Shown here piece after piece: positions 41,619-41,702 of a stretch of DNA of 64,000 nucleotides; positions within the stretch are counted from its first letter, which is position 1, and each line of letters opens with the position of its first letter. The stretch comes from Escherichia coli. GTDB taxonomy: Bacteria; Pseudomonadota; Gammaproteobacteria; Enterobacterales; Enterobacteriaceae. The DNA lies in NCBI RefSeq assembly GCF_017348835.2, contig NZ_CP071375.1. One strand, 5' to 3'. The position numbers were made by a program, and so were the translations under genes. The notes beneath the pieces are model-generated. The model had not been told where the DNA came from and searched no databases. It saw only the letters and a list, made by a program, of their open reading frames with translations.

Positions 41619-41702
41619 ATGAAAATTATACTCTGGGCTGTATTGATTATTTTCCTGATTGGGCTACTGGTGGTGACTGGCGTATTTAAGATGATATTTT
41701 AA
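41619..41702 (+). CDS. yohP: 27 aa single-helix membrane peptide
   Basis: ORF MKIILWAVLIIFLIGLLVVTGVFKMIF preceded by AAAGGAAC. Confidence 0.6.
   Translation: MKIILWAVLIIFLIGLLVVTGVFKMIF

Follow-up and report, generated by a model that had tools for sequence, protein, structure and literature searches.

The window, i.e., the whole stretch of 64,000 nucleotides of Escherichia coli DNA that was analysed, holds on its plus strand a short ORF at 41619-41702 (ATG, 27 codons and TAA), which encodes the small inner-membrane protein YohP and whose translation, read from the sequence and the ORF list, is MKIILWAVLIIFLIGLLVVTGVFKMIF. The residues of note are K2, the transmembrane core I3-F23, G15, G21 and K24. 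On the same strand, a Shine-Dalgarno (SD) sequence, AAGGA (41608-41612), can be read directly 6 nt 5' of the ATG and, farther upstream, the block TTTCCTATACTTA (41578-41590) corresponds to a promoter element conserved ahead of the SD. The gene sits in a 694-bp spacer that runs from the start of mdtQ (41395, minus strand) to the stop of dusC (42090, minus strand), where it is adjoined by a GC-rich element at approximately 41778-42040. The divergent upstream neighbour, mdtQ (39959-41395, minus strand), encodes an outer-membrane efflux channel according to the annotation of the near-identical strain PE164, and the convergent downstream neighbour, dusC (42090-43040, minus strand), is annotated as a tRNA-dihydrouridine(16) synthase.

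An ORF of 27 codons is, by itself, no evidence of a gene, since 65 ORFs with 20 aa or more overlap positions 40000-43500 and 572 of 20-40 aa are found in the whole window. This one is, among those 572, the only ORF to reach a Kyte-Doolittle GRAVY of 2.0 (its value being 2.47), and the index reaches 3.01 in the core I3-F23, which is flanked by lysines at positions 2 and 24. Positions 41380-42100 are 100% identical to E. coli chromosomes in which the ORF is annotated as yohP between mdtQ and dusC, with the RefSeq product “small membrane protein YohP” (WP_000691708.1). The translation matches the NCBIfam equivalog NF011345 over positions 1-27 of 27 (67.3 bits, for a cut-off of 58), as well as the Pfam family PF25659, YohP (50.6 bits, for a cut-off of 27), and all its 27 residues are identical to those of YohP from E. 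coli K-12 (b4679 in MG1655; UniProt C1P609), encoded at the same position between mdtQ and dusC. A 161-bp segment that takes in promoter, SD and ORF occurs in single copy in 5421 of the 5426 complete E. coli genomes, with at least 99% identity in 5351 of them, and yohP is annotated in every listed match that covers the ORF. The HMM score, the length and key residues, the synteny and the coding selection described below all place the product in the YohP family, and it is virtually certain that 41619-41702 is yohP, a free-standing gene for a single-pass inner-membrane protein of 27 residues. Because of the RefSeq annotation, the HMM matches and the near-universal presence in E. coli, this is the rediscovery of a known and routinely annotated gene. 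YohP was first reported in 2008 (Hemm et al., as given in a citing paper) and has been studied mechanistically, so the feature is not new.

The original prediction, made from the letters and an ORF list, had described a 27-aa hydrophobic, single-helix peptide identified as yohP, with a plausible ribosome-binding site, in a long intergenic region next to a GC-rich element. Its sequence and coordinates were exact, from the ATG to the TAA, and its identity was right, as judged from the RefSeq annotation, the curated HMMs, the purifying selection and the published detection of the protein made from the native chromosomal promoter. The remaining elements of the description agree with the hydrophobicity values and the full-length family matches, with the position of AAGGA and the conservation of the SD core among orthologous loci, and with the length of the spacer and the location of the GC-rich element. 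In contrast, the remark that such peptides are often missed by automatic annotation does not suit yohP, which the NCBI pipeline annotates by means of the equivalog model.

In the window, mdtQ is frameshifted by a deletion of 1 bp near 41047, which splits the ORF at 41030-41048. This is a single gap in a run of T (T5 in the window vs T6 in PE164) with respect to an otherwise identical intact gene, and it reflects either a pseudogenisation that arose independently or a sequencing error in the homopolymer. The mdtQ of K-12 is annotated as frameshifted as well, yet it carries T6 at this site, which means that its lesion lies elsewhere.

The spacer between yohP and dusC (41703-42089), i.e., the 3' flank or UTR of yohP, varies between strains and contains a GC-rich, structured and dispersed repeat (41778-42040, plus strand) that is a neighbour of the gene and lies outside it. 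The repeat has about 260 bp and is built of inverted repeats, forming a long-range stem (41789-41804/41914-41929) and two hairpins (41822-41843 and 41949-41980). Across 5425 complete E. coli genomes it occupies 17477 places, the median per genome being 3, and it is never annotated; a second locus of the repeat is situated in the interval from lysO to aqpZ. The consensus fold obtained from six copies has -110.8 kcal/mol and 74 pairs, and three of these pairs show compensatory changes, two of them in the 41949-41980 hairpin. The Rfam model TwoAYGGAY (RF01731) is covered in full at 41788-41927, at 25.9 bits, which is below its gathering score of 43, and the match contains a single AUGGAU loop and a single AAGGAC loop. 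A literature search with sequence strings of the element returned no paper.

It is in this 3' flank that the window departs from K-12. In K-12 derivatives, the segment 41560-41704, with the promoter, the SD and the ORF, is 100% identical to the window, and the only difference at yohP is that the homology ends 2 nt after its stop codon, the GC-rich repeat of the spacer being inverted: it has the sense of yohP in the window and is reverse-complemented, in the sense of dusC, in the K-12 spacer (1344-1715 of the K-12 locus, L082), with about 93% identity. The arrangement of the window is found in 1999 complete genomes (~37%) and that of K-12 in 3310 (~61%). The last codons of dusC (42090-42101) differ with the arrangement, the protein ending in AIDIGKLR in the window (316 aa) and in AIDIEKL in K-12 (315 aa), so the boundary of the rearrangement falls inside the dusC coding sequence.

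The evolution of the peptide was followed in a syntenic sample of 80 loci from different species, fetched through the neighbouring DusC protein and not through the peptide itself, since selecting the loci by the peptide would have biased the test. The yohP ORF is present in 19 of these 80 dusC-anchored loci, the carriers being Escherichia spp., Salmonella enterica subsp. arizonae and diarizonae, most Citrobacter, Enterobacter quasihormaechei, two Franconibacter and one Buttiauxella. Every locus bearing it has an ATG, exactly 27 codons and a stop, for which all three stop codons are in use, and the order mdtQ-yohP-dusC is kept in 17 loci; the position between mdtQ and dusC, characteristic of the family in Escherichia, Salmonella and Citrobacter, is also stated in the literature (PMC12719787). 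An SD core (AAGGA, GGGA or GGAG) lies 6 nt 5' of the ATG in 18 of 20 orthologous loci, while the neighbouring bases vary, and the similarity across genera stops at the yohP stop codon. The possibility of a chance intergenic ORF, which the abundance of short ORFs in the window would allow, is practically nil in view of the HMM matches and of the constant length of 27 codons across genera; it was discarded on the grounds of the conservation of orthologues, the codon statistics given next, which denote purifying selection, and the Western blots in which the protein has been detected.

The 16 distinct yohP coding sequences give only 7 distinct proteins. Their variable columns are distributed as 10, 1 and 22 among the first, second and third codon positions, and the pooled pairwise pS (0.585) greatly exceeds pN (0.044), with a pN/pS of 0.076. 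Such a pattern is the mark of selection at the level of the peptide, and it excludes a chance ORF as well as an RNA that is purely non-coding. The constraint is not evenly distributed along the protein. In codons 2-13, six residues vary, although only among I, L, V and A, whereas in codons 14-27 there is no residue change despite variation in 12 of the 14 codons. K2, G15, G21 and K24 are invariant in all seven distinct orthologous proteins. Since I14-F27 (including G15, G21 and K24) has remained unchanged while the synonymous sites are near saturation, the pattern argues that what is selected is a specific helix-packing interface, be it that of a homodimer or one facing an undiscovered partner, and not mere hydrophobicity.

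The Salmonella enterica orthologue, STnc1330/YohP, illustrates how much of the locus is kept outside Escherichia: 25 of the 27 residues are identical, and the C-TATACT -10 box and the SD spacing are the same. Beyond these motifs, the flanks of the Salmonella gene cannot be aligned, and a GC hairpin is found directly after its stop codon, whereas in the window the stop is followed by approximately 75 nt of AT-rich DNA and then by the large repeat. A terminator scan downstream of yohP in the window gave no canonical intrinsic terminator. The Salmonella transcript was first catalogued as an abundant, RpoS-dependent “non-coding” sRNA (PMC5437024), and the yohP mRNA has been reported to be localised at the membrane without being translated and to bind SecY and YidC (PMC10066597). 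Both observations would suit a dual-function RNA, in which the transcript acts mainly or additionally as a regulatory RNA and the peptide is secondary. Against this stand the protein-like substitutions described above, the lack of conservation of the UTRs beyond the SD and the detection of the tagged protein in both E. coli (PMC12719787) and Salmonella (PMC5437024), a detection that also documents translation, the sign by which the original prediction was to stand or fall at this start codon. A pure RNA function is thus excluded, and a regulatory role in addition to, or above, that of the peptide is very unlikely.

The structure of the mRNA bears on the same question. Two stem-loops of the yohP mRNA (nt 10-25 and 30-78) have been published and proposed to take part in its targeting to the membrane (PMC10066597), and they coincide with the minimum free energy (MFE) fold of the E. 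coli sequence (-9.8 kcal/mol). When this fold was threaded onto the non-Escherichia orthologues, it lost much of its stability, with energies that ranged from -4.1 to +8.7 kcal/mol and were mostly unfavourable. The second stem shows no two-sided compensatory change, the first one is mostly unpaired in other species, and the fold of the 186-nt yohP transcript is no better than that of shuffled sequences (z = 0.56). A conserved structure of the yohP mRNA was therefore rejected, given that the MFE fold is not kept in orthologues, that there is no two-sided covariation and that the z-score is the one mentioned. As far as the comparison of orthologues goes, evolution lends no support to a structural part in mRNA targeting, because neither are the stem-loops kept nor does the transcript fold better than shuffled sequence. 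What is conserved in the yohP mRNA is its U-richness, which follows from the codons for hydrophobic residues (the coding sequence has 40.5% T, vs 24% in the window).

Regarding the expression of the gene, the -10 hexamer TATACT (41583-41588) is located 30 nt 5' of yohP, with a C at -13 (41582), and the block that includes it, TTTCCTATACTTA, is the only one conserved upstream of the SD in an alignment of 11 genera and species. Of 20 orthologous loci, 18 have the motif C-TA[CT]ACT (C-TAYACT) at 29-32 nt ahead of the ATG. A TATACT hexamer with a C at -13 is characteristic of promoters that depend on RpoS. The STnc1330/yohP transcript of Salmonella is strongly dependent on RpoS and on the growth phase, and hardly any 3xFLAG-tagged YohP can be detected when rpoS is mutated (PMC5437024). 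From the conserved C-TAYACT and the RpoS dependence in Salmonella, we infer that the promoter is of the σS type, with a predicted transcription start at about 41594-41596 and a 5' UTR of about 24 nt. Under this scheme, yohP would have a σS-type promoter of its own giving rise to a short mRNA, whose brief leader would lead to translation from a canonical SD and ATG. Stationary phase, minimal medium, oxygen limitation and a higher pH all lead to accumulation of the protein made from its native promoter. The induction by SDS/EDTA and H2O2 reported earlier was not reproducible between laboratories (PMC12719787).

Outside the carriers mentioned above, yohP was not found within 3 kb of dusC in Klebsiella, Pectobacterium, Serratia, Yersinia and others, and the gene is dispensable in nature and patchy in its distribution. 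In four Citrobacter species, mdtQ stands next to dusC without yohP, with spacers of about 110-280 bp. The Escherichia albertii type strain NBRC 107761 also has no yohP, and the equivalent of 41561-41974 is replaced there by about 17 bp (1208-1226 of its locus, L006); the deletion takes the promoter, the ORF and most of the GC-rich repeat, and one of its breakpoints is within the 41949-41980 hairpin. In Franconibacter (two loci) and Buttiauxella (one locus), yohP is located 1-2 kb beyond dusC, with other DNA in between, and the Franconibacter copies have no C-TAYACT box and show an extra in-frame ATG just 5' of the gene. As for more distant relatives, a profile search of all stop-to-stop segments of 81 loci detected no diverged homologues, with nothing between 57 bits and noise. 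A PDB sequence search gave no relative at E up to 10, a PADLOC search with YohP gave no match, and in PHROGs there was a weak match to a family of unknown function (E = 0.032).

YohP is a carbonate-resistant protein of the inner membrane, oriented mainly N-out/C-in, and it forms SDS-resistant dimers that need G15 (PMC7549839) and are abolished by the substitution K24E (PMC12542507). The protein is too short to be recognised co-translationally, for which reason SRP binds it after its release and delivers it, via FtsY, to SecYEG or YidC. When SRP is inhibited by ppGpp, YohP is inserted in an SRP-independent manner from the mRNA bound to SecY and YidC (PMC10066597). Its production decreases the membrane potential and fluidity and raises cardiolipin, and it increases PspA, PspC and (p)ppGpp, reduces global protein synthesis and condenses the nucleoid, an effect that the authors have termed “metabolic silencing”. 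Moreover, a yohP deletion mutant survives ciprofloxacin and H2O2 more poorly. These observations suggest a sequence of events in which YohP accumulated in stationary phase would cause a mild depolarisation that, in turn, would induce the Psp response and ppGpp and slow down the metabolism. Nevertheless, most of the phenotypes were obtained with exponential-phase cells that expressed the gene prematurely from a plasmid, which the authors list among the limitations of their work, and the deletion has only minor effects on the proteome and no growth phenotype under inducing conditions. On balance, it seems somewhat probable that depolarisation and metabolic silencing are the physiological role of YohP.

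YohP shares its class with YncL, YkgR and YshB, all of them stress-induced proteins of fewer than 50 aa with one transmembrane helix. The similarity extends in YncL to the depolarisation of the membrane and the condensation of the nucleoid, and in YkgR to cross-linking with SRP, but none of the three has any sequence relationship to YohP, which matched only YohP families. AcrZ, MgtS and MgrB are also like YohP in size, in their single transmembrane helix and in their stress-linked expression; unlike it, they have defined protein targets. The original prediction had added that peptides of this kind often regulate membrane proteins, and YohP could, in the manner of AcrZ-AcrB, MgtS-MgtA and MgrB-PhoQ, be the specific modulator of a partner membrane protein, the depolarisation being a side effect of overexpression. 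Many characterised small membrane proteins do act in this way, and the invariance of residues 14-27 across genera, next to the tolerance of residues 3-13 to I/L/V/A exchanges, exceeds what a generic membrane anchor needs. In addition, the one interaction reported for YohP is with RNase E: constructs of the latter containing the membrane-targeting segment retrieved it three times in a two-hybrid screen, but this signal was weak and its authors consider that it may be a false positive due to co-localisation at the membrane. The invariant half, moreover, holds the determinants of homodimerisation (G15 and K24), which could alone explain the constraint, and the native levels of YohP in stationary phase have been reported to equal those that depolarise the membrane when expressed from a plasmid. 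With no partner established in the literature, and with the published data indicating a direct, sublethal perturbation of the membrane, the general statement of the prediction does not fit YohP, and a partner-modulating role is unlikely.

The direct action on the membrane is shared, in outline, with TisB, DinQ, LdrD and HokB, in which a small hydrophobic helix lowers the proton motive force and leads to a dormancy-like physiology. The parallel is closest with TisB, DinQ and LdrD, given the depolarisation, the nucleoid condensation and the slower growth, and it suggests that yohP might encode the toxic part of a type I toxin-antitoxin module that has gone unrecognised, restrained by an antisense or adjacent sRNA. 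There is one σ70-like match on the minus strand (ATGCCA-16-TATCAT, 41691-41718, read from 41718 to 41691) that would drive an antisense transcript across yohP. This match, however, is at the level expected by chance (one found, vs a mean of 1.6 in shuffled sequences), and its -35 box falls within DNA that varies between E. coli strains. Apart from the -10 box, the SD and the coding sequence, no flanking block is conserved between genera, and neither a conserved antitoxin gene nor an antitoxin RNA is apparent. The mRNAs of type I toxins are long, processed and translationally inert, unlike that of yohP, with its short 5' UTR and standard SD. Furthermore, yohP appears to be controlled by σS, and type I toxins by the SOS response or by antisense RNA. 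The search of Pfam at E up to 1 retrieved only YohP and that of PADLOC nothing, which leaves YohP outside the Hok/Gef, Ldr, TisB, Ibs, ShoB and DinQ families. The gene is present in single copy, and a tblastn of YohP against plasmid and phage collections gave no match, a result in which the low-complexity filter may have masked the hydrophobic query. Finally, about 1000 copies of YohP per cell (Li et al. 2014, as quoted in PMC12542507) are present without killing, i.e., the protein is non-lethal at its native abundance. A type I toxin is, all in all, an extremely unlikely reading of yohP.

The account that brings these data together is that of yohP as a gene driven by σS, whose product would be a peptide targeted by SRP or through its mRNA, able to dimerise and to depolarise the membrane, and it can be held as a whole with considerable confidence. 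In this respect, yohP in the window shows no departure from the published picture and the finding adds no new biology; its value is that of a positive control, in which a genuine gene of 27 codons has been recovered from raw sequence alone. The strain-specific part of the locus is its 3' end. The 3' UTR of yohP is dimorphic across E. coli, differing from 2 nt past the stop codon, so that results obtained with the UTR of K-12 may not transfer to strains like that of the window. That the repeat, if active as RNA, exerts a strain-specific control on the levels of YohP or DusC is a doubtful proposition. Were it true, the repeat might act, for instance, as a terminator, as a stabiliser or as a binding motif for a protein or a ligand, and its two arrangements would set the levels of YohP or DusC according to the strain.
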